Source: Candidatus Muproteobacteria bacterium
GTDB taxonomy: Bacteria > Pseudomonadota > Gammaproteobacteria > Acidiferrobacterales > SPGG2
Direction of reading: 5' to 3'
DNA length: 64,000 bases
NCBI GenBank assembly: GCA_003251795.1
Contig: QKEI01000055.1
Span: 8,593-72,592, forward strand
The notes below the pieces were generated by a model. The model was not told the DNA's origin, ran no database searches, and was given only the letters and a program-made list of their open reading frames with translations. The translations under genes and the position numbers were made by a program. Shown one piece after another: positions 28,563-64,000 of this stretch. How positions within the stretch are numbered: position 1 is the stretch's first letter; each line of letters begins with the position of its first letter.

Positions 28563-28578
28563 GCGCGCTCAGCTTCTC

Positions 28579-29130: not shown

Positions 29131-29212
29131 GACCAGGCCTCCGGGGTGAGTGCTGGCACAGCAGAACTCCCGGCACGGCCGCAGGCCGTACCGGGAGTGG
29201 ATCAACTAACGT

Positions 29213-30250: not shown

Positions 30251-30396
30251 ATTCCCCTCCTAGTTATTTGGTGTGTTAGACCAAAACGATATTGACAAAT
30301 AGCCGGCTTCAATTCAATCTTCTAGAACTATGGAGGAGTCATCTGGCTGCGCGTTTTGGCGCAGTGCAGCGTGCGCACAACAACGAGGACCCCACC

Positions 30397-32508: not shown

Positions 32509-32519
32509 GGGGGGCGACC

Positions 32520-39856: not shown

Positions 39857-39902
39857 ATGCCCCAGCCAGTATTGTCGTCGATTGGCTGTCCGAGGGATAA
39901 GC

Positions 39903-46270: not shown

Positions 46271-46272
46271 GA

Positions 46273-47169
46273 TTAAGCTGCCTCCGTACAATACGGCCGC
46301 ACGTTTAGCTTGCGGCAAATGGCATAGGTGAGTGCGGCGCGGTTGAGTGTGTAGAAATGAAGAGCGGTAACACCTTCGGCAATAAGGTCTCGGGATAGGC
46401 GACACGCGGTCGATAGGGCGACTATGGCCCGCATTTCTGGTTCATGATCAAGACCGTGAAACCGTTCGGCGAGCCACGAGGGTACCGTAGCGCTGCAACG
46501 CTTGCTGAATTGCAGGACCTTCGCAAAATTTGTGATCGGGAGGATACCGGGAATAATCGGCACGTTGATACCCGCCTGCACAGCGCGGTCGCGAAAACGA
46601 AGAAAGGTTTCGACGTCAAAGAAATATTGCGTGATGAACCTACTCGCACCTGCATCGACCTTCCGCTTGAGATTGTCGAGATCTGCGCCCAGTGATTTCG
46701 AATCTGGGTGACCTTCCGGATACGCGGCGGCGGAAATGTCAAAGTCCGCAATGCGGCGCAATCCGGCAATCAAATCCGCGGCGTCGCGATAACCTTTGGG
46801 GTGTGGTACGAATGGCGCGCCCGGAACCGACATGTCGCCGCGCAGCGCCACTATACGACTAACGCCCGCACCCGCCCAGGCGCGGGCCAACTGATCGATT
46901 TCTGAGCGGGACGCGCCAACGCAGGTCAGATGGGTTGCCAGCGGGATATCTCGGCGGGCAAGCAAGGCACCTACTAAACGATGGCTACTGTCGCGTGTGC
47001 TACCACCAGCGCCATAGGTGAGCGACACGAACTGCGGCTCGAGCGGCACGAGACGGTTGATAGCATTCCAGAAAAACTGCTCGTTGACCGCGGGCGGAAA
47101 GAATTCGAACGAAACGGCAAGCGGCGCCGACGACGCCGGGTTTGGCAATGATCTGGGATGCTGGCGCAT
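46273..47169 (-). CDS. metF: Methylenetetrahydrofolate reductase (canonical MetF, copy 2)
   Basis: SFEFFPP, SLTYGAGGSTR, THLTCVG, ALRGD, AAYPEGHP, ITQYFFD and PGILPI. Confidence 0.9.
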   Translation of the reverse strand: MRQHPRSLPNPASSAPLAVSFEFFPPAVNEQFFWNAINRLVPLEPQFVSLTYGAGGSTRDSSHRLVGALLARRDIPLATHLTCVGASRSEIDQLARAWAGAGVSRIVALRGDMSVPGAPFVPHPKGYRDAADLIAGLRRIADFDISAAAYPEGHPDSKSLGADLDNLKRKVDAGASRFITQYFFDVETFLRFRDRAVQAGINVPIIPGILPITNFAKVLQFSKRCSATVPSWLAERFHGLDHEPEMRAIVALSTACRLSRDLIAEGVTALHFYTLNRAALTYAICRKLNVRPYCTEAA

Positions 47170-48434: not shown

Positions 48435-48857
48435 ATGAAATCAATCAACCTATGGGCCAACGCAAACCGAGTCGTTACCGGTATGTACCGTAAGTGGCGC
48501 CAGCAAAGAGAGCAGCAACAGTCGCGAGATAAACTCGTGGGTCGCCCCGAGACAGCGGCTGATCAGCTCGCGGCGCAGGCTGGCAGGGCACCGGGATTGA
48601 GCGAGGTCATGCTCAGGCTTGGGTCGAATACCCGGCGCATGTTGAACGTTGCCGGTGTTAAGGCGTCGTCGAACCCCCAAGCCGTTACCCTGCTCGCAGA
48701 GATAGGTCAGGCGTGTGCGCATTGCCCCGATTGGGAACGCTGCAAACGCTGGCTCGAAGCAGGTGCAAGGGGTAAGGGCTACCTCGAGTTTTGTCCGAAT
48801 GCGGCAAGGTTCGCTCAGCTCAAGGCCGACGCGACGCGCAGCCAATCTACGGGCTGA
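48435..48857 (+). CDS. Small Cys-motif protein (DUF6455-like by recollection)
   Basis: CAHCPDWERCKRWL....FCPNAARFAQL pattern. GGAGG lies 9 nt upstream of the ATG at 48435. Confidence 0.45.
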   Translation: MKSINLWANANRVVTGMYRKWRQQREQQQSRDKLVGRPETAADQLAAQAGRAPGLSEVMLRLGSNTRRMLNVAGVKASSNPQAVTLLAEIGQACAHCPDWERCKRWLEAGARGKGYLEFCPNAARFAQLKADATRSQSTG

Positions 48858-48910
48858 GCTGGGTTTCGCGCAGGCCATCCTGTTGCCCCACCGCGGCACG
48901 CTAGCGAATG

Positions 48911-49810
48911 CTAAGAGCCGACACGCAGGCTAACACTCTCCTCTGCACCCTGTTGAAACGAGTCACCCCGGATGAAGCGCTCGCGGATCCGTTTCGAGAA
49001 GAAGTCGATAAAATAGACCACGATAATAATCATGATGATGATCAGACAGGCTCGGTCGAATTCGAACGCCCGTAAGGCATCGGACAGCTCAAAGCCGATG
49101 CCGCCGGCGCCGACGATGCCGAGGATGGTGGCGGCGCGGGTGTTAGACTCGAACATGTATAAAGCATTGCTTAACATCACCGGCAGCACCTGCGGCAGCA
49201 CACCGAAACGCACGACCTGATACCAGTTGCCGCCTGAGGCCCTGATTCCCTCGATCTGCCTGCGGTCGATGTTCTCAATCGCCTCCGAGTAGAGTTTGGT
49301 TAGCGTACCGGTGTCGACGATGGCGATCGCCATGATGCCGGGCAGCGGACCGAGCCCAATGGCGCGCACGAAAATCAGCGCCCAGATCAGGTAATCGGCG
49401 CTGCGCAGCACGTCGGAAAAACGGCGAAAACCGAACTGTAGTACCCGCACCGGAAACATATTCTTTGACGCGAGAAATCCCAACGGTATCGCGAACGTGG
49501 CACCGATGAGCGTGCCGAGGAAGGCCATCGCGAGCGTTTCCGCCATCGAGTGCAGGAACTGCGGCATGTATTGCCATCCCGCCGGTGGAAACAGTTGCCC
49601 CGCCATCACGCTGAGCTTGGTGAAGCCGTGAATGAAGCGCTGCGAGAAAAAGCCGAAGTGATACAAACCGTACAGCAAGATCAATGCCGTGCTACCCCAG
49701 ACCAGCCAACGCAGGGCCAGCTCGCGCGGCGTCGCCGAGAAAACGCGCGGGAAGCGTTCGCGCTCGACGCGCACGTCATCGGCAGTCAGATTTTCTAGTC
49801 TTACAGACAT
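48911..49810 (-). CDS. phnE: Phosphonate ABC transporter permease
   Basis: PhnE-like, six TM helices with an EAA-type loop (..EAIENID..QIEGIRASGG). Confidence 0.85.
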   Translation of the reverse strand: MSVRLENLTADDVRVERERFPRVFSATPRELALRWLVWGSTALILLYGLYHFGFFSQRFIHGFTKLSVMAGQLFPPAGWQYMPQFLHSMAETLAMAFLGTLIGATFAIPLGFLASKNMFPVRVLQFGFRRFSDVLRSADYLIWALIFVRAIGLGPLPGIMAIAIVDTGTLTKLYSEAIENIDRRQIEGIRASGGNWYQVVRFGVLPQVLPVMLSNALYMFESNTRAATILGIVGAGGIGFELSDALRAFEFDRACLIIIMIIIVVYFIDFFSKRIRERFIRGDSFQQGAEESVSLRVGS

Positions 49811-49821
49811 ACTTTTTCCTG

Positions 49822-50718
49822 TTACGAAACCAAGGTCTCTTTGCCGATCATGTAATGCCGTAGCCGCTCGCTCGCCATATCGATCAAGACCACCGCGGCA
49901 ATGACCATCAGCAGGATCGCGCCGACATCCTGGAAATACAGCAGCTTGACCGCATTGATCAGCTCGAAACCGATGCCACCGGCGCCAACGAAGCCGACCA
50001 CGGTGGCGCTACGCACGTTCAGCTCGAGACGCCAGAAGGTGTAGGAGATGAAGTTCGGCATCACTTGCGGCACGACGCCGAAGCGCATCTCCTCGAACCA
50101 GTTACCGCCGGCGGCGCGCACGCCCTCCAGCGGCTTGTCATCGATATTTTCATTGACTTCCGCAAACAGCTTGCCTGTCGCTCCGAGCGTATGGATGGTG
50201 ATGGCGAGCACGCCGGCTATCGGTCCCACGCCAAAGGGAAAGATGAAAAGCAACGCCCAAACGATGTCCGGCACCGTGCGCGCGATCTCAAGCACCCGGC
50301 GTGTAATAAAGTACACCCAATAGTTCTTCGCGAGATTCCGCGAGGCCATGAAGCTGAGCGCGCCGCCGATCACCGTGCCCATGAAGGTGGCGACGAAGGC
50401 CATCAGCACGCTGGTAAAAAGCTCCCGTAGCCACTTGCCGAATCCCCAATACCAGTCGGCGATATCGGCCCACAGGTTGGCCCAGGTGAGCGGCGGGAAC
50501 ATCTTGATGATGAAGCCCGAGGTTCGCGGAAAGCCACCGATCAGCACGGCGATATCGAAGCGGGTGGTGATGATCGACATGACGAGACAAGCAAGGAAGA
50601 CTACCCAGAAGACAACGACATACAGGCGCTTGCCGCGCAGATAGCGCGCACGCACCGCCTCAAAGCGGGCGACGACATCCTGGTTCGGTGATGTAAGTGC
50701 TTGCTGCGGTGTGCTCAA
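49822..50718 (-). CDS. phnE: Phosphonate ABC transporter permease
   Basis: Paralogue of the downstream permease (..EVNENIDDKPLEGVRAAGG). Confidence 0.85.
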   Translation of the reverse strand: MSTPQQALTSPNQDVVARFEAVRARYLRGKRLYVVVFWVVFLACLVMSIITTRFDIAVLIGGFPRTSGFIIKMFPPLTWANLWADIADWYWGFGKWLRELFTSVLMAFVATFMGTVIGGALSFMASRNLAKNYWVYFITRRVLEIARTVPDIVWALLFIFPFGVGPIAGVLAITIHTLGATGKLFAEVNENIDDKPLEGVRAAGGNWFEEMRFGVVPQVMPNFISYTFWRLELNVRSATVVGFVGAGGIGFELINAVKLLYFQDVGAILLMVIAAVVLIDMASERLRHYMIGKETLVS

Positions 50719-50835
50719 GTGCGTTTGTTGCCCGTGAACTTCAACCTATGCCACCACTCGACGGTCTGCCGCATGGATCAAAATAATGAAGCGAAGGCGC
50801 TGTGTCAGCGCCTTCGCTTCCAGTGCCACGACCCT

Positions 50836-51759
50836 TTAGCCCCCTTTCTTGCGTTGTTGTTTAAGCCACTGCTTGGCCTTGATGATGGGGATGTAGTCTT
50901 CGTGATAGACACGCTGCAAGCCTAGTGTCTTGCCCTGGGCCACTGCGTCGGCCGCTGCCTCGTTGACTCGTACCAGGCGGATGAACATCTTCTCGAGATC
51001 GGCCTTCATCTGCGGCGGCAGATCCGAGCGGATCACCACCGGTGGCGTCGGGATCATCGGTGAGGTCCAGATGACGCGGATCTGATCCCGTTTCAGCAGA
51101 CCCTTGTCGATCATCTTGCGGATGGCGCCGAAGCCGTCGCCTGGGGTGGTCCAGGTGAAACCACCGTCATAAGTACCGTTCAACACGCCGACGATGGTCT
51201 GCTGATGCCCGCCAGACAAAGGCGAATTGAAGTACTTGTCGACCGGCTTGCCCATCTCGGCGAATTCCACCGTGGGAACCGTGAAACCCGAGGTCGAGTG
51301 CGGGTCATTACGTGCCACCGTCTTTCCCTTCAAGTCCTCATAGCTCTTGTACGGGCTGTCGGCCTTGACAATCAGCACTGAGTTGTAACCCATGGCACCC
51401 TTGACATCCTGGGCGCCGACCAGCGGCTCCACGCACTTGCAATCGAGCCAGGTGGTGGCGTAGCTACTGGCACCCAACCAGCCGAGCTGTATCTGGCCGG
51501 TCGCGAGCGCGTTGACGATGCCGGCATACTCGGTCGCAGTGAATAGCTCCACCGGTACGCCGAGCTCCTTTTTGGCCTCTTTGAGGAAGACGTCCTGATT
51601 CTTCATCGTGTCGACCTGGGTCTCGACCGAGATGATGCCGTACTTGATCGTCGGAAACTTCTTGCGCCAGTCATCGGCTTTGGCCGTGAGTGCGCTTAAG
51701 GTCAGTACGGCGACCAGTGCAGCCAGCGGTACGGAAACAAACAAACGTCTAGTCAACAT
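50836..51759 (-). CDS. phnD: Phosphonate/phosphite-type periplasmic binding protein
   Basis: A signal peptide followed by the PhnD-family pattern (IKYGIISVE..., GQIQLGWLG). The ATG at 51759 has AAGGAGG upstream. Confidence 0.85.
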   Translation of the reverse strand: MLTRRLFVSVPLAALVAVLTLSALTAKADDWRKKFPTIKYGIISVETQVDTMKNQDVFLKEAKKELGVPVELFTATEYAGIVNALATGQIQLGWLGASSYATTWLDCKCVEPLVGAQDVKGAMGYNSVLIVKADSPYKSYEDLKGKTVARNDPHSTSGFTVPTVEFAEMGKPVDKYFNSPLSGGHQQTIVGVLNGTYDGGFTWTTPGDGFGAIRKMIDKGLLKRDQIRVIWTSPMIPTPPVVIRSDLPPQMKADLEKMFIRLVRVNEAAADAVAQGKTLGLQRVYHEDYIPIIKAKQWLKQQRKKGG

Positions 51760-51833
51760 AACATCCTCCTTCTCCACGTGGGTTGAGACTTATTTTATTT
51801 TCGCAAGACCTTGGAACCTCGCGTTCGTGCGCG

Positions 51834-52673
51834 CTACTGTCGCATTCTGCGTACATTGGTTGCTGTGTTCTTCTGCCCCAGCGAGGTCGAAGTGACGGCG
51901 ACGGAGAACTCCTCATCCTCGCCACCCTCGCCGACGCCATAGATGTCGCGTGCCAGCTCGTCCGTCAGTGCCATCGGATCGCCGTCGTAGACGACCTTAC
52001 CCATCTTCATGCCCACGAGGCGATCGCAGTATTTCTTGGCTGTGTCGAGCGTATGCAGGTTGCAGATTACGGTGATGCCGTCCTCCCGATTGATCCGGCG
52101 CAGCGCATCCATGACGATGCCGGCATTGCGCGGGTCGAGCGAGGCGATCGGCTCATCGGCCAGCATGATTTTGGGTTCCTGCACCAACGCGCGGGCGATG
52201 GCGACCCGTTGCTGCTGACCGCCGGAGAGCGTGTCCGCACGTTGCAGCGCCTGTGCGCTGACGTCAAGACGGTCGAGAGCGCGAATCGCGAGTGCGCGTT
52301 CTTCAGGGGAGAACAAAGTGAATAGGGACTTCAGCGTAGAATTGTAATTGATGCGCCCCATGAGCACGTTGCTGATGACGTTCAAGCGCGGTATCAAATT
52401 GAACTGCTGAAAGATCATCGCGCAGTGGGTGCGCCAATTAAGTAGCGCCCTTCCCTTCAATGCGTTGACGTCGACCGCGTCACCGTTCTCCTCAAACAAA
52501 ATGCTGCCGCTGGTCGCATCGCCAAGGCGGTTGATCATTCGCAACAAGGTGGATTTGCCGGCGCCGGAGCGGCCGATGATGCCCAGCATCTGCCCGGTCG
52601 GGACGTCGAGGGTGACATCGTCCACGGCGGTCAATACGCCGAACGTTTTGGTCAGGTTTTGCAGCCTTAGCAT
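51834..52673 (-). CDS. phnC: Phosphonate ABC transporter ATP-binding protein
   Basis: [27 protein letters not shown] and MLADEP. Confidence 0.9.
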
Positions 52674-52919: not shown

Positions 52920-53708
52920 GTGGCCCTGCTCCCACAGCAACTGTTTCCGATCTTGTCCGATAACACGCGGTTGCGCGTCTTGCTTCTCTTGGTGCGCGAA
53001 GGTGAGCTAACCGTGGGCGAGCTGGCGCACGCTCTGCGACTGGTCCAACCGAAAATATCGCGTCACCTTGCCGTGCTCAGGGAAAGCGGCATCATCGACG
53101 ATCGTCGCCACGGGCCGTGGGTGTTCTATCAGCTGTCGGCGAAACTGCCGCCCTGGGTGATGACCGTGCTCACCGCGGCGGCGGAGGCGACCACGGGTCA
53201 CCAGCAGCTACGCACGGACCGGACCACGCTGGCTGCGATGCACAACCGTCCCGGGGCCCGTTACCGCGTGTCGCGTCTGCTATTCCTGTGCTTCGGCAAC
53301 TCGTGTCGCTCACAAATGGCGGAAGGGTGGGCACGTCATCTCGGCAGCGAGCTGTTGGACGTACGGTCCGCCGGCATCGAGGCGCACGGCGTGAATCCGC
53401 GGACACTTGCGGTGATGCAGGAAGCCGGCATCGACATTTCGCGCCAGCAATGCACGCGCCTGACGCCACGGCAACTCACCTGGCCAGATATGGTGGTGAC
53501 GGTGTGTGACCACGCCGATGAGCACTTACTGTGGCTGCCGGTGCGGGCGCGCAAGGAGCATTGGCGGATCCGAGACCCGGCGGCAGCAAGCGGTTCGGAA
53601 GAAGTGATTATGAAAGCGTTTCGCGCGGCCCGCGACGACATTGGCAAGCGCGTGCACCACCTGCTCGGACGCATACAAAGCGCCAGTTCTGTGACAGAGT
53701 TACATTGA
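52920..53708 (+). CDS. ArsR HTH fused to an LMW-PTPase-type arsenate reductase (ArsC)
   Basis: N-terminal wHTH DNTRLRVLLLL...LTVGELAHALRLVQPKISRHLAVL. The C-terminal domain has the CX5R P-loop LFLCFGNSCRSQMAEGW. GTG start. Confidence 0.8.
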   Translation: MALLPQQLFPILSDNTRLRVLLLLVREGELTVGELAHALRLVQPKISRHLAVLRESGIIDDRRHGPWVFYQLSAKLPPWVMTVLTAAAEATTGHQQLRTDRTTLAAMHNRPGARYRVSRLLFLCFGNSCRSQMAEGWARHLGSELLDVRSAGIEAHGVNPRTLAVMQEAGIDISRQQCTRLTPRQLTWPDMVVTVCDHADEHLLWLPVRARKEHWRIRDPAAASGSEEVIMKAFRAARDDIGKRVHHLLGRIQSASSVTELH

Positions 53709-53743: not shown

Positions 53744-54316
53744 TCAATTGCGCATCAGGCGTTGCAAGAGCGCGCGGTAGTGCTCCCCAGGCGGGTTTTT
53801 CATTCCTGGCACCGTCGCTTGTTCGTCCCAGCGGCGTAGCGTTACCGCTTGCGCCGCGTAGGCTGTGGCCTCGAACGCCACTACCTCACTCGCCGTCATT
53901 GGCCCACCCTGCAGTGCCAGCGTATGCCGGGTGGTGGACGATAACTTGTCAAAATACTTCGGCTCGACCGCGCACAGGTAGCGCTTGGCGGCCACGTGCA
54001 AGCGTATCGGCTCGGTGATTTCCGGAGCAAAATAGGGCTGCAATAGCTGCGCGCCGGCCTGCTCGTGATGGCGATCGATGCGTCGTCTCAGCATTTGGCG
54101 GTGCTCGCTGGACGTGCGATGCCAGGGAAAGTCCGTGCCGAAGTGGCCGATATCATGCAGCAGCGCTGCCGCCACTAGCGTGTCCGCAGCTTGGGCATGC
54201 TCAGCCAGTGCCGCCGTTTGCAGCATATGCTCGACCATGGTGACGCCTGCGCTGCCATACGCTCGGCTACTAAGACGAGCAAACGCGTCAAACAGGAAAT
54301 CGATAATCGCTACCAT
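53744..54316 (-). CDS. phnZ: PhnZ-family HD-domain (mixed-valent di-iron) oxygenase
   Basis: VEHMLQTAALAE, AALLHDIGH, HEQAGA, IRLHVAAKRYLCAVEP and LRRWDE..., matching the phosphonate-operon-associated HD family as I recall it. The ATG at 54316 gives about 190 aa. Confidence 0.7.
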   Translation of the reverse strand: MVAIIDFLFDAFARLSSRAYGSAGVTMVEHMLQTAALAEHAQAADTLVAAALLHDIGHFGTDFPWHRTSSEHRQMLRRRIDRHHEQAGAQLLQPYFAPEITEPIRLHVAAKRYLCAVEPKYFDKLSSTTRHTLALQGGPMTASEVVAFEATAYAAQAVTLRRWDEQATVPGMKNPPGEHYRALLQRLMRN

Positions 54317-54330
54317 GCCGAACGTACAAC

Positions 54331-55314
54331 CTACAGGTCCAGCACCAGCATACGACTCTTGGCGCGTGAGCAACAGATCGTTAAATACTGGCTGTGCTCC
54401 TCGTCGTCCAATACCAGGTCGCGATGATCAGGTTCACCCGTCAGGTAGCGCGTCTTACAGGTCGCACACAGCCCCGCTTCGCAGGAGGTTTCGACTTCTA
54501 TGCCCTGTTCGCGCAATACCTCGACGATGCTCTTGTCATTGGGCACGTAATAGACCGCACCCGTGCTGGCAATCTTGATTTGAAACCCCAGGCCAACGGC
54601 ATCGTCGCCGACGTCGGCGGCCTCGTCTTTGGTGAGCGTTGCCTTAGGTGAAGCCGCCGCCGTGAAGTACTCGCAATGCACGCTACCCTTCGGCCAATGT
54701 GCCGAGGCCGCTTCTGTCGCCCGCATGAAGCCGACGGGACCGCAATAGTAGAGATGCGTGCCCGGTTCGTACGATTTCAGCAGTGCGGCGATATCGAGGC
54801 CCCTGCGTGGATCACCGCCGTCGTGATGCAGCAGCACTCTGCCTTCACTTGCCAGCGCAGCAAGCTCGGGGCGAAATGCCGTATGTTCCGGGGATTTGGT
54901 GCAATAATGCATGGTAAAGTCGGCGCCGATGCTCTGCAAGCGATACAGCATGGCCATCATCGGCGTGACACCGATGCCACCGGCCAGTAACAGGTGGTGC
55001 GTTGCCTCTTCATGCAATGGAAAGTTGTTGCGCGGTTGCCGCCCCACGGACACCGTTCGTTGGGTATGAACACGCTCGAACAAGGCCTGCGAGCCACCGC
55101 GGCCGTATTCTTCGCGCAGCACTGCGATCAGGTACCGATGGCGTTCGCTCGGGTCATTGCACAGCGAGTACTGCCGTACGCTGCCATCGCGGAAGTGGAA
55201 ATCGATGTGCGCACCTGCGGTAAATGTCGGCAGCGGCTTGCCTTCCGGGTGAACCAACTCATAGGAATTGATGTCGCGCGCCTGGTAGGTGACTTGGCGC
55301 ACCTGCAGGCGCAT
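54331..55314 (-). CDS. Phthalate-dioxygenase-reductase-type oxidoreductase (FNR-like flavin/NAD domains + C-terminal plant-type [2Fe-2S])
   Basis: RQYSL flavin motif, LLAGGIGVTPM NAD motif and C-terminal CEAGLCATCKT...C. The start is uncertain (ATG 55314 preferred). Confidence 0.8.
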   Translation of the reverse strand: MRLQVRQVTYQARDINSYELVHPEGKPLPTFTAGAHIDFHFRDGSVRQYSLCNDPSERHRYLIAVLREEYGRGGSQALFERVHTQRTVSVGRQPRNNFPLHEEATHHLLLAGGIGVTPMMAMLYRLQSIGADFTMHYCTKSPEHTAFRPELAALASEGRVLLHHDGGDPRRGLDIAALLKSYEPGTHLYYCGPVGFMRATEAASAHWPKGSVHCEYFTAAASPKATLTKDEAADVGDDAVGLGFQIKIASTGAVYYVPNDKSIVEVLREQGIEVETSCEAGLCATCKTRYLTGEPDHRDLVLDDEEHSQYLTICCSRAKSRMLVLDL

Positions 55315-55521
55315 GCCGGATTTCGGGTATCGCGTTTGTTCAGTCACTTTGTTGGATTGGTCAACGACAAGGGAGGGGGATTGTTTGGCAAGGCGGATTA
55401 AGCACCATCCGCAACGATGGTACACCAGGTCTAAAATGCGTCAAATTCATTTATCATATGAAAGTCATATGGATTCGGGATGTATTCGTACCCCTGTCTC
55501 TAAGCTGCCGGGACCAATGCG

Positions 55522-56412
55522 ATGAACGAGAAGCAGCTGATCAACTTCAAGCAATTACGGTGCTTTCACGCCGTGGCACAAGAAGGTAGTTTCACCCAGG
55601 CAGCGCGCTCCCTGTCGGTGGGGCAGCCGAGCATCACGACGCACGTGAGGGCTTTGGAAAACCACTTCGGCGTCGAGTTGTTTTGTCGTCACGGCCACAG
55701 CGTCGAGCTCACGGACCTCGGACGTTGGTTACTGGAGATCACAAAACGCATCTTCACCCTGGAAAAAGAGGCGGCCGAGCTGTTGCTTGCTGCTAGCGGG
55801 CTCAAAATCGGTCATCTGAAGATCGGCGTGATCGGGCCGTTTCAGGTGACGCAAATGATCGTTGCCTTCAACCAGAGATACCCGGACGTGGAGTTGTCTG
55901 TCTCCATCGGTAATTCTCAGGAGATCCTCGAAAGCTTACTCGACTTCAGTGCCGATGTGGCAGTGTTGGCGCAGTTCGAGGATGACCCGCGATTTTTTTC
56001 CGTGCCATATAGTCGTAACCGCGTGATTGTGGTTGTGAGCTCAACCCATCCCTGGAGCTCGCGTGGCGATATACAGTTGCAGGAGCTCGATGGTCAACGC
56101 ATGGTTTTTCGTGAGCAAGGCTCAGCAACCCGGCGCGCCTTCGAAAAGGCGCTGGCGCTCGCCAAGGTCAACGTGCGCAAGGTGCTGGAGATCGAGAGTC
56201 GCGAGGCCGTACGTGAGCTTGTGGCAAATGGTGTCGGCATCGGCATCGCTCTGGAGGATGAGTTTGTCCCGCACAAGCGCTTGCACCCTCTGCAAATTGC
56301 CGACGCCGAGGTTTACATACACCCTCACGTGGTATGCCTGCTGGAACGCCGTAATGCGCCGTTGATCCAGGCCTTTCTCACAGTGGTCAAAGATCTGTTG
56401 CAGGCACGCTGA
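55522..56412 (+). CDS. LysR-family transcriptional regulator
   Basis: HTH LRCFHAVAQEGSFTQAARSLSVGQPSITTHV. It is divergent from the reductase-phnZ unit and upstream of the Rieske oxygenase. Confidence 0.85.
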   Translation: MNEKQLINFKQLRCFHAVAQEGSFTQAARSLSVGQPSITTHVRALENHFGVELFCRHGHSVELTDLGRWLLEITKRIFTLEKEAAELLLAASGLKIGHLKIGVIGPFQVTQMIVAFNQRYPDVELSVSIGNSQEILESLLDFSADVAVLAQFEDDPRFFSVPYSRNRVIVVVSSTHPWSSRGDIQLQELDGQRMVFREQGSATRRAFEKALALAKVNVRKVLEIESREAVRELVANGVGIGIALEDEFVPHKRLHPLQIADAEVYIHPHVVCLLERRNAPLIQAFLTVVKDLLQAR

Positions 56413-56569
56413 GCTCGACACGAGGTAAGCGCGTAGCCGCCGCTCGCATTACCTAATCTAATGAGCTCAATACGATAAATGAATTGGACAAGGCTTTGCT
56501 TTTGAGAGATTTTGCTCAGACGTGCCCGCAGTGGGCGAACCTTGGTTCGGAACCTCACGGAGACAGTCG

Positions 56570-58087
56570 ATGGATGTGAAGGCAAAAAAGCTCGATAGGA
56601 GCGGGGCACCGGCGACCCAGCGTAAGTTTGTGCCCTATGGTGGCTATTACAGCAACCAGGTACCGACCTACGACCCCGAGATCACGGAAACCGGGCCGGG
56701 CACACCGACCGGTGAGTACATGCGCCGCTTCTGGCACCCCGTGTGTCTGTCCGAGGAGCTGACCGACGTACCGCGCTACATCAAAATCATGGGTGAGGAG
56801 CTGGTCGCTTTTCGCGATAAGAGTGGTCGCGTGGGCGTGATGCACCTACACTGCCCACACCGCGGCGCGTCGCTCGAGTACGGCATGATCCAGGAAAGAG
56901 GCATCATGTGTTCGTACCACGGTTTTGTTTTTGACGTAGACGGTAGCTGCCTCGAGGTGCCGTTCCCCAAGGGCGAGGAGAAGGAAGGGGAAAAAGCCAA
57001 AGAGAAGATTTGTCAGGGAGCGTACAAGGCTTTTGAACGCCACGGTCTGGTGTTCGCCTATATGGGTCCGCCGGAAGAAGAGCCCCCGTTTCCCGATTGG
57101 GAGGGCGGTTTCACCGTTTATCCTGGTGACGAGCCGGTCGCATATAGCAACTTCCAGACTTGTAACTGGTTGCAAGTGCAGGACAACTCCGCCGACCAGT
57201 ACCACCACATCCCGCTGCACACCACCGCCGTCATTCCAGGGCACGAGCAAGGGACGACCTTCGGCGAGGCCGGGGCCGCACCCTATCTGGTGCGACCGGA
57301 TCTGCAGTTTTTCACCGTTCATGAGGGGCGAGGCGTGGCGTGGACTTCGTCGCGTCGCGTCGATGAAAGCAAGATCTTCATTCGCGTCAATCATCAGATC
57401 CTGCCGAACATTAGCTTCCACTCATATCTGTTCGAGGACGGTGCCAAAGCGAAGCACTTCAGCCGCATCCACATGATGCGTTGGACGGTGCCGGTGGATG
57501 ATGAGAACAGCAAGATGATCGGCTGGCGCGTCTTCGGCCCGCACATCGACCCACGTAATGTGGGCAAGCGCGAATATGTCGGCTACGAGAAGATGGATTT
57601 TCTCGAAGGTCAGACCGGTATGCGCCGCCCCGAGCGCATGAAGTACGGCGCGGGCGAGTTGCCACCGGTGCCCAAGGACCACCGTGATCGTACCTGGTAC
57701 AAGGAGGGACAGTACGCACCCGGGGATTACGAAGTGGTCTGCAGCCAGCGCCGGATTGCCGTGCACGCGCTGGAGAACCCGATGAAGTTCGATGGGGGGG
57801 TCTATCTATTTCGCAAGCTGCTGCGTGACGCCATACGCGGTAAGAATCCGGCCGCTTCGCCCGAGGCCTGGCGCCGCTGGCTACAGCAAGGCATGCCCAA
57901 CAGCTACTGCTCGGGCAACGTGCTGGCGATTGCGCAGGCGCCGACGCCGGAGGAAGAGGTGCAGAAACGGCGTCGCGTCGCGCAACAGGTGATCGAAGCC
58001 ACCACCGCGAGCGACAAGCTCAAGGGTGACGAGCGAGACCGTTTTATGAAGCAAAAGCTTGCCGAGCTCGAGCACAGCATGGGCTAA
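56570..58087 (+). CDS. Rieske non-haem-iron oxygenase alpha subunit (class IA-type, large ~505 aa)
   Basis: Rieske CPHRGASL...CSYHGF and the mononuclear-Fe motif DNSADQYHHIPLH (D-x2-H-x4-H). No beta-subunit gene is present. Confidence 0.85.
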   Translation: MDVKAKKLDRSGAPATQRKFVPYGGYYSNQVPTYDPEITETGPGTPTGEYMRRFWHPVCLSEELTDVPRYIKIMGEELVAFRDKSGRVGVMHLHCPHRGASLEYGMIQERGIMCSYHGFVFDVDGSCLEVPFPKGEEKEGEKAKEKICQGAYKAFERHGLVFAYMGPPEEEPPFPDWEGGFTVYPGDEPVAYSNFQTCNWLQVQDNSADQYHHIPLHTTAVIPGHEQGTTFGEAGAAPYLVRPDLQFFTVHEGRGVAWTSSRRVDESKIFIRVNHQILPNISFHSYLFEDGAKAKHFSRIHMMRWTVPVDDENSKMIGWRVFGPHIDPRNVGKREYVGYEKMDFLEGQTGMRRPERMKYGAGELPPVPKDHRDRTWYKEGQYAPGDYEVVCSQRRIAVHALENPMKFDGGVYLFRKLLRDAIRGKNPAASPEAWRRWLQQGMPNSYCSGNVLAIAQAPTPEEEVQKRRRVAQQVIEATTASDKLKGDERDRFMKQKLAELEHSMG

Positions 58088-58304
58088 CGCCCACGCCTCT
58101 CGGCGAATTGTGGTATTCTGCAATACGCCGCGCGGCTGGGCCCTGCCAAGGGAAGCCCGGACAAACTAGCGGAACCGCGGGCAAAGAAACACAAGCAACC
58201 CAGGTTCCATCTGCACGACAACAATGTCCCGCGAGCGGCCCAACGAACGGCTTAGCAAGGTCGCTGCGCGATGATCGTGCGTGCCCCCTGATGTTAGCGG
58301 TCCC

Positions 58305-59174
58305 ATGGATCTGATTGTTGCCGTACTCGTTCTAAGCTCGGCGGCGCTGCATCCACTGCGTGAGTTTTGGATCAAGGACGATATTTACCCCGAAGGCCTT
58401 ACGTTCGCGGTCATCATTCAATTCGGGCTGTACGCGGCGCTCCATAGCCTAGTCCTCGGTGTCGATCCGACGACCGCGCTGGCGGTGTGGCCGCTGGTGC
58501 TGCTGTCCGCGTTCGGGCTGTTCCTGTACTTTTTTAGCGTAGTGGCGACGCTGCGGCACGGCGATTTCTCGATCTACTACCCAATCATGCGTTCCTCCCC
58601 GCTGTACGTGGTCGTAGTCAGCGCGCTGCTCTTGGGCGAAAGCTATTCTGTCAGCATGCTCGCGGGTATCGCGTTGGTGCTGCTAGCCGCATTCTTCCTC
58701 CAGTACCGACGCGGCGCCCGGTTGCTCGCCGATCCGCGTACCTTGGCGATGGCGGTGCTCGCCATGGTTGGTCATGGCACGCTCACCGTAGCCGACGCAC
58801 AGGCCATGCGCAGCGTCGAGCCCATGGCCTTCCTGCTGTTGCTGTATCTCTTGTTTACCCCCTGCAGCGCAGTGTTTTTTACGGTGATGCGCCCGCGAGG
58901 ACGCCCACCACTACAGCACCTTTTTGCCGGTTGGCGCATCACCCCAGTGCGCTATTTTCTCGCCGGGATTACGTCCTACGTGTCGTACTACCTAATCCTC
59001 ACAGCCTTTCAGTTGGGAGGGAATGTCGCGGCCGTCAGCGCCGTGCGCCAGGTATCGATCCCGCTGTCGGTAGTGCTCGGCGGCATGTACCTGAAGGAAG
59101 CGAGCATGATGGTGCGGCTGGCATGGTCGATGGTGCTAGCCTTGGGTGTTGTCATTATCTTCTTCTCGCGCTAG
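58305..59174 (+). CDS. DMT-superfamily (EamA-like) transporter
   Basis: A ten-TM-like hydrophobic profile with an internally duplicated architecture. Confidence 0.7.
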   Translation: MDLIVAVLVLSSAALHPLREFWIKDDIYPEGLTFAVIIQFGLYAALHSLVLGVDPTTALAVWPLVLLSAFGLFLYFFSVVATLRHGDFSIYYPIMRSSPLYVVVVSALLLGESYSVSMLAGIALVLLAAFFLQYRRGARLLADPRTLAMAVLAMVGHGTLTVADAQAMRSVEPMAFLLLLYLLFTPCSAVFFTVMRPRGRPPLQHLFAGWRITPVRYFLAGITSYVSYYLILTAFQLGGNVAAVSAVRQVSIPLSVVLGGMYLKEASMMVRLAWSMVLALGVVIIFFSR

Positions 59175-59393: not shown

Positions 59394-60347
59394 ATGCCAG
59401 CGCTAAAAGTTTCGATCGTTACCAACGCCAAAGAGGACACGGCCCGTTATACCGACGGCATATTTCCCGCTGGTTGCGAGGTATTGTTACAAACGGAGCA
59501 AGAGCTCTACGAACAGATCGGCGATATCGATATCCTGATTCCCGGCCACATCAGCGTGGGTAAGGATCTGATCGAACGCGCGGCCAAGCTCAAGCTCATC
59601 CATTGCGGCACCGGTTATAACAACGTGGATCTGGACGCGGCCAGTCAGCGCGGTGCCTACGTGGCGGTCACCCCGAACGTGGCGGCGCAGTCCGTCGCCG
59701 AGCTCGTGTTTGCCTCCATTCTGACGTTGGCCAAGAAGATCCACACATTTGACGCCACCATGAAGAGCGGCGGCTGGAAGAGCACCGATTTTATCGATGT
59801 GCCCGAGCTCAAGGGCAAGACCATGGGGATCATTGGTTACGGCAACATCGGCAAGGCCGCCGCGCGCATTGCCCGCGGCTTTCAGATGAAGTTGCTGGCG
59901 CACGATCCCAACATCAAAGTGGACGAGTCGGACGTCAAGCAGGTTGGACTCGATCAGCTGTTGCGGGACTCCGATTTCATTACCTTGCACGTGTTATTGA
60001 ATGCCGACACAAAGCACATGATGAGCGAGAAGCAACTTGGCATGATGAAGCCCAAGGCGATCCTCGTTAATGCCTCGCGCGGCCCGGTGGTCGATGAAAC
60101 GGCCTTGATCGCGGCGTTGAAGCAACGCAAGATCGGCGGCGCCTGCCTCGACGTATTCGAAAAGGAGCCGCTCGCTAAGGACAGCGAGTTGCGCAAGCTC
60201 GACAATATCCTGCTGACGCCGCACATCGCCTATTGCGCCAACGAGGCGCTGGCCGGTCGCTATCAATTCTTCGCCGACAACTGCAAGCTTGTAGCCAACG
60301 GTAGCGCGCCGAAGATGGCGGTAAACGCAGATAAGGTGAAGCGCTGA
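59394..60347 (+). CDS. D-isomer-specific 2-hydroxyacid dehydrogenase
   Basis: GIIGYGNIGKAAA NAD motif, NASRG, the DVFE.EP pattern and LTPHIA. Confidence 0.85.
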   Translation: MPALKVSIVTNAKEDTARYTDGIFPAGCEVLLQTEQELYEQIGDIDILIPGHISVGKDLIERAAKLKLIHCGTGYNNVDLDAASQRGAYVAVTPNVAAQSVAELVFASILTLAKKIHTFDATMKSGGWKSTDFIDVPELKGKTMGIIGYGNIGKAAARIARGFQMKLLAHDPNIKVDESDVKQVGLDQLLRDSDFITLHVLLNADTKHMMSEKQLGMMKPKAILVNASRGPVVDETALIAALKQRKIGGACLDVFEKEPLAKDSELRKLDNILLTPHIAYCANEALAGRYQFFADNCKLVANGSAPKMAVNADKVKR

Positions 60348-60399: not shown

Positions 60400-61830
60400 A
60401 TGCATGCCGTAACCAAACCCGAAGTCGAACACATGCAGTGCTTCGTGGCGGGCGAATGGATCGACTCGAAAGAACGCCTGGAAGTTTATAACCCGTACAC
60501 CAAGCAGCTGGTCGGTACCGTACCGATCCTAACTGCGCAACAGGTGCAACAGGCGGTCGATGCGCTAGCCGCCTACCAGCCGAAACTGTCGGCGCATCAA
60601 AGATCGGAAATACTGGCCAAGGCCGCCGCAGAGATCAAGGCGCATAAGGATAAGCTGGCCATGGGGATTTCCATGGAGTCGGGCATGTCGCTCGCAAACG
60701 CCCAGACCGAGGTGTCGCGCAGCGTCGGTCTCATGCTAACGGCGTCGGAGGAGGCCAAGCGTATCATGGGTGAGCAGCTCCCGAGTGACACCGATTCTGC
60801 TGGGCGTGACAAGATTATCCTGGGCATGCGTTTCCCGGTCGGTGTGGTGACCGCCATCGTGCCGTTTAATCGGCCGCTGAATCAGGTGGTGGTCAAGGTC
60901 GCGCCCTCATTCGCCGCCGGCAATAAGACCATCATCAAGCCAACGGAAAAAGCGCCGCTATCGGCATTCCGATACGTCAAGATCCTGTTGAACAGCGGCA
61001 TGCCACCGGAGATGATTAGCATCGTCAGCGGGCGACCAAGCGAGATCGGTGAGGTGCTCGTCGGCAGCAAGAACGTCGATATGGTGACGTTTACCGGTAG
61101 CACCGCCACCGGCCGCCGACTCGCCAACATGGCTGGCATCAAAAAGCTTACCATCGAGGCTGGGGGCAACGATCCGCTTATCCTCTGCGAGGATGGCGAC
61201 ATCGATAAAGCAGTCAGTCTGGCGGTCGCTGGGGCTTTCGGCAATGCCGGCCAGTCGTGTCGCGGCATCAAGCGCATCCTGGCGATGGAATCGGTGGCTG
61301 ATGAGTTCGCGAGCAAGTTCACCAAGAAAGTGAAGGCGATGAAATGCGGCGATCCGTTCGATCCTGAGACCGAGATCGGCACGCTGATCGACGAGGAAGC
61401 GGCGATGCGCGTGGAGGCCGCGGTCAACGCAGCGGTCAAGCAAGGCGCCAAGGTGTTATGTGGCCACAAGCGCGAGGGCGCGCTTTATCCGCCGACGGTA
61501 GTCGATTTTGTTCCGCCGGATGCGGACATGGTGGTCAATGAGTGCTTCGGTCCGACGGCGCCGATCGTGCGGGTCAAGAACCTGCAGCAAGCGGTGGAGA
61601 TCGCTAACTCGACGGACTACGGACTGCAGTCGGGTGTGATGACCAAGAATCTCGATAACATTCGTTACTGCATCAATCATCTGAAAGTCGGCGCGGTCAA
61701 CATCAACGAGGGCCCCCAGTTTGATATGCCGAACATCCCATTCGGTGGCGTCAAGCAGAGCGGTATCGGGCGCGAGGGCATCCGCTACGCCATCCAGGAG
61801 ATGACTTACGTCAAGACCGTCGTGATGTAG
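60400..61830 (+). CDS. NAD(P)+ aldehyde dehydrogenase (candidate phosphonoacetaldehyde dehydrogenase by context)
   Basis: ALDH motifs FTGST.TG, EAGGNDP, catalytic Cys in GQSCRG and the PFGG.K.SG pattern. The functional guess rests only on adjacency to the PhnA-like gene. Confidence 0.8.
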   Translation: MHAVTKPEVEHMQCFVAGEWIDSKERLEVYNPYTKQLVGTVPILTAQQVQQAVDALAAYQPKLSAHQRSEILAKAAAEIKAHKDKLAMGISMESGMSLANAQTEVSRSVGLMLTASEEAKRIMGEQLPSDTDSAGRDKIILGMRFPVGVVTAIVPFNRPLNQVVVKVAPSFAAGNKTIIKPTEKAPLSAFRYVKILLNSGMPPEMISIVSGRPSEIGEVLVGSKNVDMVTFTGSTATGRRLANMAGIKKLTIEAGGNDPLILCEDGDIDKAVSLAVAGAFGNAGQSCRGIKRILAMESVADEFASKFTKKVKAMKCGDPFDPETEIGTLIDEEAAMRVEAAVNAAVKQGAKVLCGHKREGALYPPTVVDFVPPDADMVVNECFGPTAPIVRVKNLQQAVEIANSTDYGLQSGVMTKNLDNIRYCINHLKVGAVNINEGPQFDMPNIPFGGVKQSGIGREGIRYAIQEMTYVKTVVM

Positions 61831-61940: not shown

Positions 61941-63080
61941 ATGAGCAAGAAGCGCAAGATCCTGATCGTCATGATGGATGGCTTTGACCCGGCCTACCTG
62001 CAGGCCAGTGATATGCCCAACACCAAGCAAATGATCGCCCGGGGTTTCTACAAGACCGTAAAAGGTGTGATGCCGAGCGTCACCAACGTCAATAACACCG
62101 GCATCTGCTGCGGCGGTCCACCGAAGCTACATGGTATTACCGCCAACTCCTATTTCGATCTGCAAACCCGCAAGGAAGAGTACATGGACAAGGCGGCGAT
62201 GGTGCTGGCGCCGACGGTATTCGAGCGTGCGGACAAGGTCGGTCTCAAATCGGCGTTGATGACCGCCAAGAAGAAGACTCAGTCACTATTACGTACCGGC
62301 GCCAGCATACGTCTGGCAGCAGAAGCGCCGCAGGAAGCGGAGGGCGGTCAGATCGATTGGGTCGCTCGCCTGGGTCCGGCGCCGGATATCTACTCGCCCG
62401 AGATCAATCACTGGTTATTCCGTGCCACCCAGATTGTGCTCAACGAGACCGACACCGATCTCGCCTACTTTCACACCACCGACTACCCGATGCATATGGA
62501 GCCGCCGTGGGGCGAAATGTCGCAGTTCCATTTGAGCGAATGGGATCGTTTGCTCGGCGAGACCTTGAACGAGCATACCGATCTCGAGGTCTATATGTCG
62601 GCCGATCACGGCATGAACTTCAAGTCGCTGTGCTACGACCTAAATAAGGTGTTACCGAAACGCGGTGTCGAGATCTTCTTCGCCATGTCGGCAGAGCGCG
62701 ATCCCTACGTCAAGCATCACCGTACCTACGGCGGCACGGCCTTCGTCTGGCTCAAGGAACCGGGTGACTTCGAACGGGTCGCAGACGCTTGTCGTCGGCT
62801 CGAGGGTGTGGAGGCTGTATACGACCGCTATACGGCTGCCGCAAGATTCGAGTTGCATCCCGATCGCATCGGCGACATGCTCGTTACCGGCGACATCAAC
62901 ACGGTGTTTGGGCCGGTGGATAAAGACGAAGGAATCGAGCAGTTGCCGCAGGGCTTCCGCACCCATGGCGGTAGCGACGAGGCCAACGTGCCGCTCATCG
63001 TCTATAACCGCGAAGTCGACCCGCGCAACTGGCACGGTTACCGTATGAACTACGACCTCATCAAGTCCATCGGTTTCTAA
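61941..63080 (+). CDS. phnA: Alkaline-phosphatase-superfamily phosphonoacetate hydrolase (PhnA)-like enzyme
   Basis: MDGFDP..., PSVTNVNNTGICCGGPPKLHGITANSYFD parallels the PhnA nucleophile region as I recall it, plus the SADHGM metal site. The ATG at 61941 has GAGGA upstream. Confidence 0.7.
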   Translation: MSKKRKILIVMMDGFDPAYLQASDMPNTKQMIARGFYKTVKGVMPSVTNVNNTGICCGGPPKLHGITANSYFDLQTRKEEYMDKAAMVLAPTVFERADKVGLKSALMTAKKKTQSLLRTGASIRLAAEAPQEAEGGQIDWVARLGPAPDIYSPEINHWLFRATQIVLNETDTDLAYFHTTDYPMHMEPPWGEMSQFHLSEWDRLLGETLNEHTDLEVYMSADHGMNFKSLCYDLNKVLPKRGVEIFFAMSAERDPYVKHHRTYGGTAFVWLKEPGDFERVADACRRLEGVEAVYDRYTAAARFELHPDRIGDMLVTGDINTVFGPVDKDEGIEQLPQGFRTHGGSDEANVPLIVYNREVDPRNWHGYRMNYDLIKSIGF

Positions 63081-63336
63081 CGTATTACGCGGGGCGCTCG
63101 CTCGCTTGACGCCCCGTAGCTTATCTGCGACGCTTACTCGCGGTTGTTGAGATTCGGTTCAGACACAACCGCGACGTTAGCCAAAACGCAGTGGGCTCTT
63201 CCAAGACGGCGCCACCGTTCCAGCCCTTCGTGCAAACCAGCCGGTTTTGCCACAATCGGAGACTGTATCGGAGGCCGTTACACGTCCCCCTAACCTTGGT
63301 CATGACAGGCCACAGATGAGGCCTGCACGCAGTGCA

Positions 63337-64000
63337 ATGGAAGCGCAATTGTTACAAATCGGCAGCTTTACTCCGCGACGCATCAGCGTGCGCGTTGATC
63401 CCATGTTGCGTATACACGGCTATAGCGAACCGCGGCGGGTGAAGCCGGCCATTCGCAATGCGGCTGAGACGGTAGCCGCAACGGCGGAACGCGTATTTAC
63501 GCCCGAGGTGTACTATCGGCGTGTGCCGATCAAGAGCTGCACGCATGGGTTACTGTTGCTCGAAACCGGTACCATGTTTCATAGCCTGGCATTCTCACAA
63601 TTCCTTGGCGGCTGCCACCAGGTGATCGTTTTCGTGCTCACGCTCGGCAGCAGGTTCGACCAGGTGGCGCAAAATCTGACGGACAGCGGCCAGACGTTGG
63701 AGGCACTATTTCTCGAGACCGCCGGCTGGCTCGGTGTGGAGGCGGCAACCAAGTCCTTTACCGAGCATCTGCGCGCCGTGCTGCGCAAGCAGGGCTGCGC
63801 TCTTACGCGCCGCTTCGGTCCCGGTTATACCTACCGCTCGCGTGCCGATGATAGCGAGTGGCCGCTGGAGGAACAGAAGTCGCTATTCGCACTGTTCGAA
63901 GGCCAGGCGATTTCGGTCCAATTGTTAGACAGCTGTGCCATGATCCCCAAGATGTCGCGTTCCGGTCTCTACGGTGTGCGGCGCAAGACAGCCGGGCAAT
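63337..64000 (+). CDS. Stand-alone MetH activation-domain-like protein, 3' partial
   Basis: This ORF is not in the supplied track because it runs off the window. My translation gives ...RFGPGYTYRSRADDSEWPLEEQKSLFALFEGQAISVQLLDSCAMIPKMSRSGLYGV, matching the PGY..W...EQ..LF......I.L..S..M.P.KS.SG signature of the B12-dependent methionine synthase activation region. The start is uncertain (ATG 63316 or 63337). Confidence 0.6.
   Translation, partial: MEAQLLQIGSFTPRRISVRVDPMLRIHGYSEPRRVKPAIRNAAETVAATAERVFTPEVYYRRVPIKSCTHGLLLLETGTMFHSLAFSQFLGGCHQVIVFVLTLGSRFDQVAQNLTDSGQTLEALFLETAGWLGVEAATKSFTEHLRAVLRKQGCALTRRFGPGYTYRSRADDSEWPLEEQKSLFALFEGQAISVQLLDSCAMIPKMSRSGLYGVRRKTAGQ

Follow-up and report, generated by a model that had tools for sequence, protein, structure and literature searches.

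A conserved trio of Rieske oxygenase, reductase and PhnZ/TmpB-family HD oxygenase genes points to a possible variant of the oxidative phosphonate route

Oxidative cleavage of the carbon-phosphorus (C-P) bond has been described in four versions, all of which employ an Fe/2-oxoglutarate hydroxylase of the TauD family (2023 review, PMC10574752): PhnY*/PhnZ for 2-aminoethylphosphonate (2-AEP), TmpA/TmpB for 2-trimethylaminoethylphosphonate (TMAEP), PhnY*/PhnZ1 of G. maris for methylphosphonate, and the PhoF fusion. Here we consider a 64 kb stretch of the Candidatus Muproteobacteria contig QKEI01000055.1 (the window, meaning the whole stretch that was analysed), in which, between positions 53744 and 58087, genes for an HD-domain diiron oxygenase of the PhnZ/TmpB family and a reductase on the minus strand diverge from genes for a LysR regulator and a Rieske oxygenase on the plus strand. 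We suggest that the Rieske oxygenase and its reductase replace the Fe/2-oxoglutarate hydroxylase and make the 1-hydroxyphosphonate that the HD enzyme cleaves, a proposal drawn from gene context to which we give an even chance of being right. To judge by its genes, the region is a LysR-controlled phosphonate-catabolic regulon, and in its oxidative branch the C-P bond appears to be cleaved in two steps, the first by an enzyme that is not homologous to the known one. All of the elements that an initial annotation had listed here were found, with coordinates that were exact or off by a few codons.

The likeness to the PhnZ/TmpB pathways lies in the HD protein, in the phosphonate-transporter and LysR genes alongside it, and in the proposed logic of C1 hydroxylation followed by a four-electron oxidative C-P cleavage. 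The called HD gene (53744-54316, minus strand; maximal open reading frame (ORF) 53744-54373) encodes 190 amino acids with a Pfam HD match and is identical to database protein P0121. It had been annotated as PhnZ-family, and the best NCBIfam models are indeed TmpB, Phn-HD and PhnZ1. However, the protein falls below all three equivalog cut-offs, scoring 197.3 bits against TmpB (NF049941, cut-off 300), 188.6 bits against Phn-HD (TIGR03276, cut-off 214.6) and 158.4 bits against the G. maris PhnZ1 model (NF052439, cut-off 300); among solved structures it matches TmpB (6NPA) with 139 bits and PhnZ (4MLM) with 84 bits. The diiron ligand set H...HD...H...H...D is complete, with H30, H54, D55, H84, H107 and D164 corresponding to PhnZ H34, H58, D59, H80, H104 and D161, and these six residues are invariant across the HD alignment. 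So is the tyrosine (Y20) of the YxxE loop, a residue that ligates Fe2 in PhnZ and TmpB, where the glutamate of the loop contacts the substrate amino group (PMC8177086). That glutamate is replaced by alanine in the window protein (YGSA), and its position is variable across the separate subclade to which the protein belongs (subclade B, below), whereas TmpB-like proteins all read YLGE. We rejected the change as a sign of a non-amino substrate and dropped it as a discriminator because 88%-identical orthologues carry the glutamate; only the variability of the loop within subclade B is retained. We class the HD protein as divergent within the PhnZ/TmpB superfamily rather than as an equivalog of an enzyme already characterised, and it is proposed as the C-P cleaving step, an O2-dependent conversion of 1-hydroxyphosphonate to carboxylate and phosphate.

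What differs from the PhnZ/TmpB pathways is that no TauD gene was found and that a Rieske oxygenase and an NAD(P)H reductase occupy its place in the operons. The initial annotation had seen no PhnY*/TmpA-type gene, and both Pfam and tblastn searches of the window bear this out. Among the large ORFs of the window, Pfam recognised neither TauD nor any other 2-oxoglutarate oxygenase. As tblastn probes we used three TmpA-like proteins, TauD-family sequences with an HTDNPY motif, taken from the commonest neighbour of TmpB-like HD genes in metagenomic loci. The best window match to these (1306-1563, E = 0.04) lies in a succinyl-CoA-ligase alpha gene and is not TauD. The probes matched none of 80 genomic loci encoding a relative of the window Rieske protein, within about 10 kb of the Rieske gene, and no TauD partner was found in the nine loci with the full trio (below). 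The same probes found a TauD-type match in 32 of 80 comparison HD loci, which were among the metagenome matches listed, were mostly TmpB-like (41-52% identity) and often lay on short contigs.

The Rieske gene (56570-58087, plus strand) encodes an alpha-only non-heme-iron oxygenase of 505 amino acids. This agrees with the earlier description of a Rieske protein of some 505 residues, lying divergently behind LysR without a beta subunit: the next gene encodes an EamA transporter, and a beta (small) subunit gene is absent from every Rieske locus examined. The Rieske motif C95-x-H97...C114-x2-H117 and the mononuclear-iron motif D205-x3-D209-x2-H212-x4-H217 are invariant in 50 sequences. Its partner (54331-55314, minus strand; 327 amino acids) had been called a class-IA reductase with FNR-like domains and a plant-type 2Fe-2S domain, and both parts were recovered as NAD_binding_1 (FNR-like) and a C-terminal plant-type Fer2. 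The best solved relative of the reductase is phthalate dioxygenase reductase (PDR; 2PIA), to which it aligns over its full length with 262 bits.

Phthalate dioxygenase (7V25/7FJL) with PDR is one of the closest described systems to the pair, sharing an alpha-only oxygenase, Rieske and 2-His-1-carboxylate motifs and a single reductase of the FMN/2Fe-2S type, and it is the best match of the window Rieske protein by structure as well as by sequence. The nearest solved structures by sequence are phthalate and isophthalate dioxygenases (E = 1e-40 to 1e-42, mainly over the N-terminal half). An AlphaFold2 model of the Rieske protein (mean predicted local distance difference test score 81.7) retrieved phthalate dioxygenase 7V25 in Foldseek with E = 3.7e-25, TM-scores of 0.59/0.71 and 24% identity. 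However, identity is only 22-24%, the sequence match lies mainly in the N-terminal half, and about 90 amino acids at the C-terminus of the window protein form an additional helical extension. The gene context points to a small aliphatic anion rather than an aromatic acid as the substrate. Further Rieske systems offer a chemical analogy for substrates resembling TMAEP: CntA/CntB (carnitine), GbcA/GbcB (glycine betaine) and Stc2 are likewise two-component systems of Rieske oxygenase and reductase, and oxidise sp3 C-H bonds of small polar onium compounds. In sequence the relation is very weak (about 36 bits to CntA structures and 16.5 bits to the GbcA model), and none of the three is known to act on phosphonates. 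The closest chemical analogy for methylphosphonate is methanesulfonate monooxygenase, MsmABCD, a Rieske-type enzyme that oxidises the carbon bearing the acid group of a C1 organosulfonate. MsmABCD differs in having a beta subunit and a separate ferredoxin, and in forming a product that breaks down unaided, while a hydroxyphosphonate depends on the HD enzyme.

The window Rieske protein belongs to a large, strongly conserved family. It has 2825 database matches, from Gamma-, Alpha- and Betaproteobacteria, with 62-77% identity, and 580 species genomes contain relatives; among the database relatives found, none was characterised or carried an informative name. The Rieske tree has two clades. Clade I, which includes the window, comes from marine and sediment Gamma- and Alphaproteobacteria and shows a recurrent link to phnCDEE, a phn-type LysR gene and EamA, and a variable one to HD and to a module of 2-hydroxyacid dehydrogenase, aldehyde dehydrogenase and PhnA-like genes; orphan genes also occur in clade I, some of them in metagenome-assembled genomes that also bear the full cluster. 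Clade II, from Burkholderiales and Pseudomonas, has a conserved set of LysR, aldolase II, major facilitator superfamily (MFS) transporter, GntR, ketol-acid reductoisomerase (KARI), Rieske and reductase genes and no phosphonate genes. This set was seen in Advenella, Pseudomonas asiatica and Cupriavidus (L081/L082, L083, L175/L176), with a GntR of the FCD type and with the KARI-like gene missing in Advenella; it could be an uncharacterised small-aliphatic-acid pathway, widespread in Burkholderiales including Polynucleobacter. The clade-II neighbours, KARI and aldolase II, are of the aliphatic-acid type, as would suit an enzyme that hydroxylates small aliphatic anions. Between the two clades there are 21 positions of difference, most densely in the catalytic domain, and a comparison of phosphonate-linked with orphan clade-I Rieske proteins gave no systematic residue differences. 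A reductase homologue immediately follows the Rieske gene in 70 of the 80 loci, including all of clade II.

Co-occurrence of the trio elsewhere had been suggested as a check, and Rieske, reductase and HD genes are found together in nine loci with five gene orders. In the window, L001 and L087, HD and reductase share one strand and diverge from LysR and Rieske. Three loci (L011, L015, L172) have the order Rieske-reductase-HD-NUDIX; in L090 it is Rieske-MetV-MetF-reductase-HD-NUDIX-dienelactone hydrolase, in L171 Rieske-reductase, then at a distance CmuA-like-HD-NUDIX, and in L010 HD-MFS, then EamA-Rieske-reductase-FlpD-like iron-sulfur protein-MetV-like-MetF. The HD start codon of the window had been placed 14 nucleotides (nt) downstream of the reductase, and the sequence reads exactly so, from the reductase stop TAG through 14 nt to the HD ATG; in L087 the two genes overlap by 4 nt. 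An ADP-ribose-pyrophosphatase-like NUDIX gene directly follows HD in five of the loci (L011, L015, L090, L171, L172), and a dienelactone-hydrolase-like esterase gene follows NUDIX in four of them (L011, L015, L090, L172); the window has neither. These two enzymes may free phosphonates from nucleotide or ester conjugates.

The HD proteins reflect the same association. In a tree of 120 database homologues and the locus-derived proteins, all nine trio HD proteins fall into one subclade, B, whose members of known context lie with Rieske and reductase genes in nine of nine cases and with TauD in none. The sister TmpB clade is TauD-linked. In another HD clade (L116, L121, L128, L129, L135) neither TauD nor Rieske lies nearby. 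The neighbours of HD genes that lack both, in these five loci and in L170 and L177, are an aldehyde dehydrogenase with a PhnD-type transporter; a glyoxalase/VOC protein with a short-chain dehydrogenase/reductase and aminotransferases; or an MFS transporter. Such HD enzymes may use other partners or act on hydroxyphosphonates that are imported directly.

The divergent operons also share a putative regulatory element. The regulator between them (55522-56412, plus strand) is a LysR protein of the phosphonate-catabolism type, scoring 327.7 bits against TIGR03339 (aminoethylphosphonate-catabolism LysR; cut-off 341), and a homologue adjoins clade-I Rieske genes in most phosphonate-linked loci. The 16-nt motif AATTCATTTATCRTAT occurs exactly twice in the window, against a chance expectation of 0.01. 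One copy, AATTCATTTATCATAT (55444-55459, plus strand), lies in the divergent intergenic region between reductase and LysR, where it abuts a sigma-70-like -35 box facing the reductase-HD operon; the second, AATTCATTTATCGTAT (56470-56485, minus strand), lies upstream of the Rieske gene, and both are oriented alike relative to their target operons. L087 has both copies, and L001 has one, that between reductase and LysR. The presence of one operator-like copy upstream of each divergent operon supports their co-regulation.

If our proposal is correct, PhnCDEE would import a small aliphatic phosphonate, and the alpha-only Rieske monooxygenase would hydroxylate its phosphorus-bonded carbon with NAD(P)H electrons delivered to it by the PDR-type reductase. 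The HD diiron oxygenase would then oxidise the 1-hydroxyphosphonate to a carboxylic acid and phosphate. In what order the steps run, which carbon is hydroxylated and what the substrate is are all matters that we infer. Candidate substrates are N-methylated 2-AEPs including TMAEP, 2-AEP itself, methylphosphonate and 2-hydroxyethylphosphonate (HEP), and the Rieske chemistry could possibly be C1 hydroxylation, N-demethylation, or C2 oxidation to phosphonoacetaldehyde. A 2-hydroxyacid dehydrogenase, a PhnY-like aldehyde dehydrogenase and a PhnA-like hydrolase, encoded beyond the Rieske gene, would form a parallel hydrolytic branch via phosphonoacetaldehyde and phosphonoacetate, and the first of these might in addition adjust the stereochemistry or oxidation state of the hydroxyphosphonate.

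This second module resembles the PhnW-PhnY-PhnA pathway with PbfA/PbfF, with which it shares a PhnY-like aldehyde dehydrogenase, a PhnA-like hydrolase, a pfam02826 enzyme, LysR and EamA. Unlike that pathway, it has neither PhnW nor PbfA by Pfam and NCBIfam scans of the cluster, and its PhnY- and PhnA-like proteins fall below the equivalog cut-offs. The aldehyde dehydrogenase (60400-61830, plus strand) scores 496.7 bits against TIGR03250 (cut-off 635.65), is 40% identical to annotated PhnY and has PhnY 4I3T as its best solved relative (374 bits). The PhnA-like hydrolase of the alkaline phosphatase superfamily (61941-63080, plus strand) scores 198.5 bits against TIGR02335 (cut-off 407.55) and is 32% identical to annotated PhnA; among solved structures it matches phosphonoacetate hydrolases alone (1EI6, 3SZY), and it retains the threonine nucleophile motif (VTNVNN) and the TAKKK lysines. 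In PhnA phosphonoacetate hydrolase a lysine pair stabilises the leaving group (PMC10574752).

The remaining enzyme, of the D-2-hydroxyacid dehydrogenase family (59394-60347, plus strand; Pfam 2-Hacid_dh, pfam02826), is a candidate 1-hydroxyphosphonate dehydrogenase or racemase, or HEP dehydrogenase. PbfF, a 2-amino-1-hydroxyethylphosphonate racemase, is a precedent for a pfam02826 enzyme that acts on a 1-hydroxyphosphonate (PMC12366243). A pfam02826 gene also adjoins the Rieske gene in L004. The cluster has the pfam02826 domain and no pbfA. Regions with phnWAY on two plasmids, Ensifer pT173d and Ruegeria AD91A, were searched for pbfF and lacked the gene; tblastn of the plasmids for PbfF-like sequences gave generic matches only, below 40% identity. 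Phosphite dehydrogenase (PtxD) was considered for the window enzyme and is unsupported, NCBIfam giving only generic phosphoglycerate dehydrogenase and glyoxylate reductase matches.

We favour hydroxylation by the Rieske enzyme ahead of HD cleavage because the trio is conserved through rearrangement, a subclade of HD proteins is specific to Rieske loci, the operator is shared and no TauD partner was found, and because the HD protein retains its full diiron ligand set and the tyrosine of the loop, the Rieske motifs are complete and the reductase is PDR-like. Several observations weigh against it. Both the Rieske and the HD tree are neighbour-joining trees without support values and give a pattern, not a proof. 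Subclade A, which holds the nearest relatives of subclade B, has no Rieske gene nearby in three of three known contexts (L170 and L177 have neither TauD nor Rieske; L178 has TauD). The Rieske family is also a wide one: clade II has no phosphonate genes, and the same is true of several orphan loci in clade I. Even among Rieske loci that are phosphonate-linked, at least five (L002, L004, L012, L023, L025) have no HD gene in the retrieved flanks, two of them on short contigs. The TauD search covered the window and the locus flanks, and a PhnY*/TmpA gene elsewhere in the carrier genomes is possible. Finally, the window Rieske gene is not co-directional with HD; it heads a co-directional run of EamA, 2-hydroxyacid dehydrogenase, aldehyde dehydrogenase and PhnA-like genes. 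The idea of the initial annotation, that the Rieske system feeds PhnZ, is supported in part, by a conserved link, its confinement to an HD subclade, a shared operator and the lack of an Fe/2-oxoglutarate partner in the window and the related loci, and is weakened by a Rieske family that extends beyond phosphonates and by the loci without HD.

Two of these points make oxidation of the nitrogen-adjacent carbon the main rival: the position of the window Rieske gene at the head of the PhnY/PhnA-like run, and loci that have PhnA-like genes and no HD. Here the Rieske enzyme and reductase would convert 2-AEP, or an N-methylated form of it, to an amine and phosphonoacetaldehyde for the PhnY- and PhnA-like enzymes, by chemistry like that of CntA or PbfD, and so supply the hydrolytic branch without PhnW or PbfA; the HD enzyme would separately cleave imported 1-hydroxyphosphonates. 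The HD-less loci in question are L012 and L025, where Rieske and reductase genes occur with a PhnA-like gene (and in L012 also a PhnY-like gene) and no HD in range, which fits a Rieske product feeding the hydrolytic branch, and separate routes through phnZ and through phnA are known to occur together (PMC9381506). However, the tightest and most often conserved adjacency is reductase-HD or Rieske-reductase-HD. The PhnA-like genes usually lie several kb away, often on the opposite strand and beside another LysR gene, and two loci (L010, and L090 with 8.2 kb) have the trio and no PhnY or PhnA in the retrieved DNA. The specific linkage of HD subclade B to Rieske genes also speaks against it, and we regard this rival as unlikely, if the most serious of those considered.

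Other genes that recur near the trio concern C1 metabolism. They encode an MtaA/CmuA-family methyltransferase fused to a corrinoid domain, RACo, CobW, and methylenetetrahydrofolate reductase (MTHFR)/MetV. The corrinoid domain matches MtgC models best in the L172 copy, and in the L171 copy the generic pyl_corrinoid model about equally with the MtgC models, in both cases below cut-offs. The window itself has corrinoid methyl-transfer gene sets at 4433-13686, 38510-40739, 45413-47169 and 63247-64000, which include CobW, RACo, B12-binding proteins, MtaA/CmuA-family methyltransferases and a methyltetrahydrofolate:corrinoid methyltransferase, as well as MTHFR-like genes and homocysteine S-methyltransferase domains; the PhnA-like gene is directly followed by an ORF with weak similarity to the activation domain of MetH. 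The corrinoid and C1 genes hint indirectly at a methyl-bearing substrate or product, for example glycine betaine from trimethyl-AEP, and aerobic marine bacteria are known to use cobalamin methyltransferases for glycine betaine (PMC12478193).

One may go further and suppose that the trio is the core of a marine pathway for methylphosphonate or trimethyl-AEP ('phosphonocholine'), tied to tetrahydrofolate C1 metabolism by the corrinoid, RACo, CobW and MTHFR genes, although we consider this unlikely. Were it true, phosphorus and the methyl group or C1 carbon would both be harvested, and methylphosphonate would have a sink that runs on NAD(P)H, is independent of 2-oxoglutarate and releases no methane. 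Metagenomic surveys that use phnZ as a marker of 2-AEP use would then misassign the whole subclade.

The same C1 genes can be read in favour of a different rival, in which the Rieske enzyme and reductase act after or beside the HD enzyme, either as an N-demethylase of a carboxylate product resembling glycine betaine or on a co-metabolised non-phosphonate acid, with the hydroxylase that feeds HD encoded elsewhere. The corrinoid methyltransferase, RACo, CobW and MTHFR genes around the trio would then handle methyl or C1 units, and Rieske demethylases of quaternary amines exist, among them GbcA and Stc2. The HD protein resembles TmpB, an enzyme that yields glycine betaine, most closely, and clade II works outside phosphonate metabolism. 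Against this stand the lack of a TauD-type partner near any subclade-B HD gene, the negligible GbcA match, and the core association of clade-I Rieske genes with phnCDEE, LysR and EamA even where HD is missing. We find this reading more doubtful than oxidation beside the nitrogen.

It is quite improbable that the reductase chiefly maintains the mixed-valent diiron state of the HD enzyme, the Rieske protein being a neighbour with a separate role. Reductase and HD genes adjoin or overlap in most loci, as this would require, but the reductase follows the Rieske gene in the HD-less clade II as well, and HD oxygenases are reported to restore their mixed-valent state without an external reductant or reductase (PMC8177086), so that the adjacency of the two genes is better explained by a shared pathway. 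Least credible of all is incidental clustering in a phosphonate or arsenic genomic island, for although the window holds many unrelated catabolic and arsenic genes, nine trio loci with five gene orders, a specific HD subclade and a shared operator motif argue against it.

In the searchable full-text literature we found no description of a Rieske oxygenase with a PhnZ-type enzyme or in a phosphonate pathway (AEP, methylphosphonate and HEP included), with the reservation that this genomic context may have been mentioned earlier. The pairing of Rieske, reductase and HD genes points to a putative, undescribed variant of the oxidative phosphonate route. If Rieske hydroxylation does precede HD cleavage, evolution would have arrived independently at a first step that is driven by NAD(P)H and has a different cofactor economy, using no 2-oxoglutarate and placing a greater demand on iron and iron-sulfur clusters, and the substrate range would probably differ too. 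It would define a separate PhnZ subclade, which marine surveys that count phnZ now pool with 2-AEP or TMAEP degradation (PMC9381506), and assign a role to this large and highly conserved family of Rieske proteins, in which no characterised member was found.

On either side, the unit is flanked as the initial annotation had stated, by phnCDEE and the PhnA-like cluster, both recognised by Pfam and NCBIfam matches. The phosphonate-type ATP-binding cassette (ABC) importer genes (48911-52673, all on the minus strand) are phnC (51834-52673), phnD (50836-51777; Pfam Phosphonate-bd, and 252 bits against TIGR03431 PhnD with a cut-off of 261), phnE1 (49822-50718) and phnE2 (48911-49810). A phnCDEE transporter accompanies clade-I Rieske genes in L002, L003, L004, L010, L012 and L023, and the called transporter genes of L084 are of the ABC_tran and BPD_transp_1 families. 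L002 has two convergent Rieske genes, at 9977-11482 (plus strand) and 11571-13148 (minus strand), beside phnCDEE and a reductase gene, with no HD gene in its 15.7 kb contig. The EamA/DUF6-type membrane protein that follows the window Rieske gene (58281-59174, plus strand; called gene of 289 amino acids, about 58305-59174) matches Pfam EamA and, below the cut-off, TIGR03340 phn_DUF6 (79 bits).

Between phnC and HD lies a gene that the initial annotation had not mentioned, encoding a fusion of an ArsR-family helix-turn-helix domain and a low-molecular-weight phosphatase/ArsC domain (52920-53708, plus strand; Pfam HTH_5 and LMWPc; TIGR02691 arsC 143 bits, below cut-off). It keeps its place beside HD in L001 (about 946) and L087 (10618-11442), whose HD proteins are 62% and 88% identical, respectively, to that of the window, and it may be a regulator for the phn transporter that senses phosphate, arsenate or redox state. 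The small DUF6455 protein recurs beside phnE2 in the window (48450-48899, minus strand), upstream of Rieske in L171 (287-568) and in L001 (about 13325). An Rfam search of the window gave no riboswitch and no other RNA. The arsenic-related set of the window occupies 13565-14590 (minus strand), which is an ArsR-S-adenosylmethionine-methyltransferase fusion, and 17551-22446 (plus strand), where the small (Rieske) and large (3Fe-4S/molybdopterin) subunits of arsenite oxidase lie at 17551-20545; the set also includes a pentapeptide-repeat protein and a major intrinsic protein (MIP) aquaporin. At 26074-33080, genes for a tripartite ATP-independent periplasmic (TRAP) transporter, DctPQM, lie beside those for a molybdopterin oxidoreductase with a 4Fe-4S subunit, a thiolase-like protein and an acyl-CoA ligase, a region that looks like an unrelated catabolic island.

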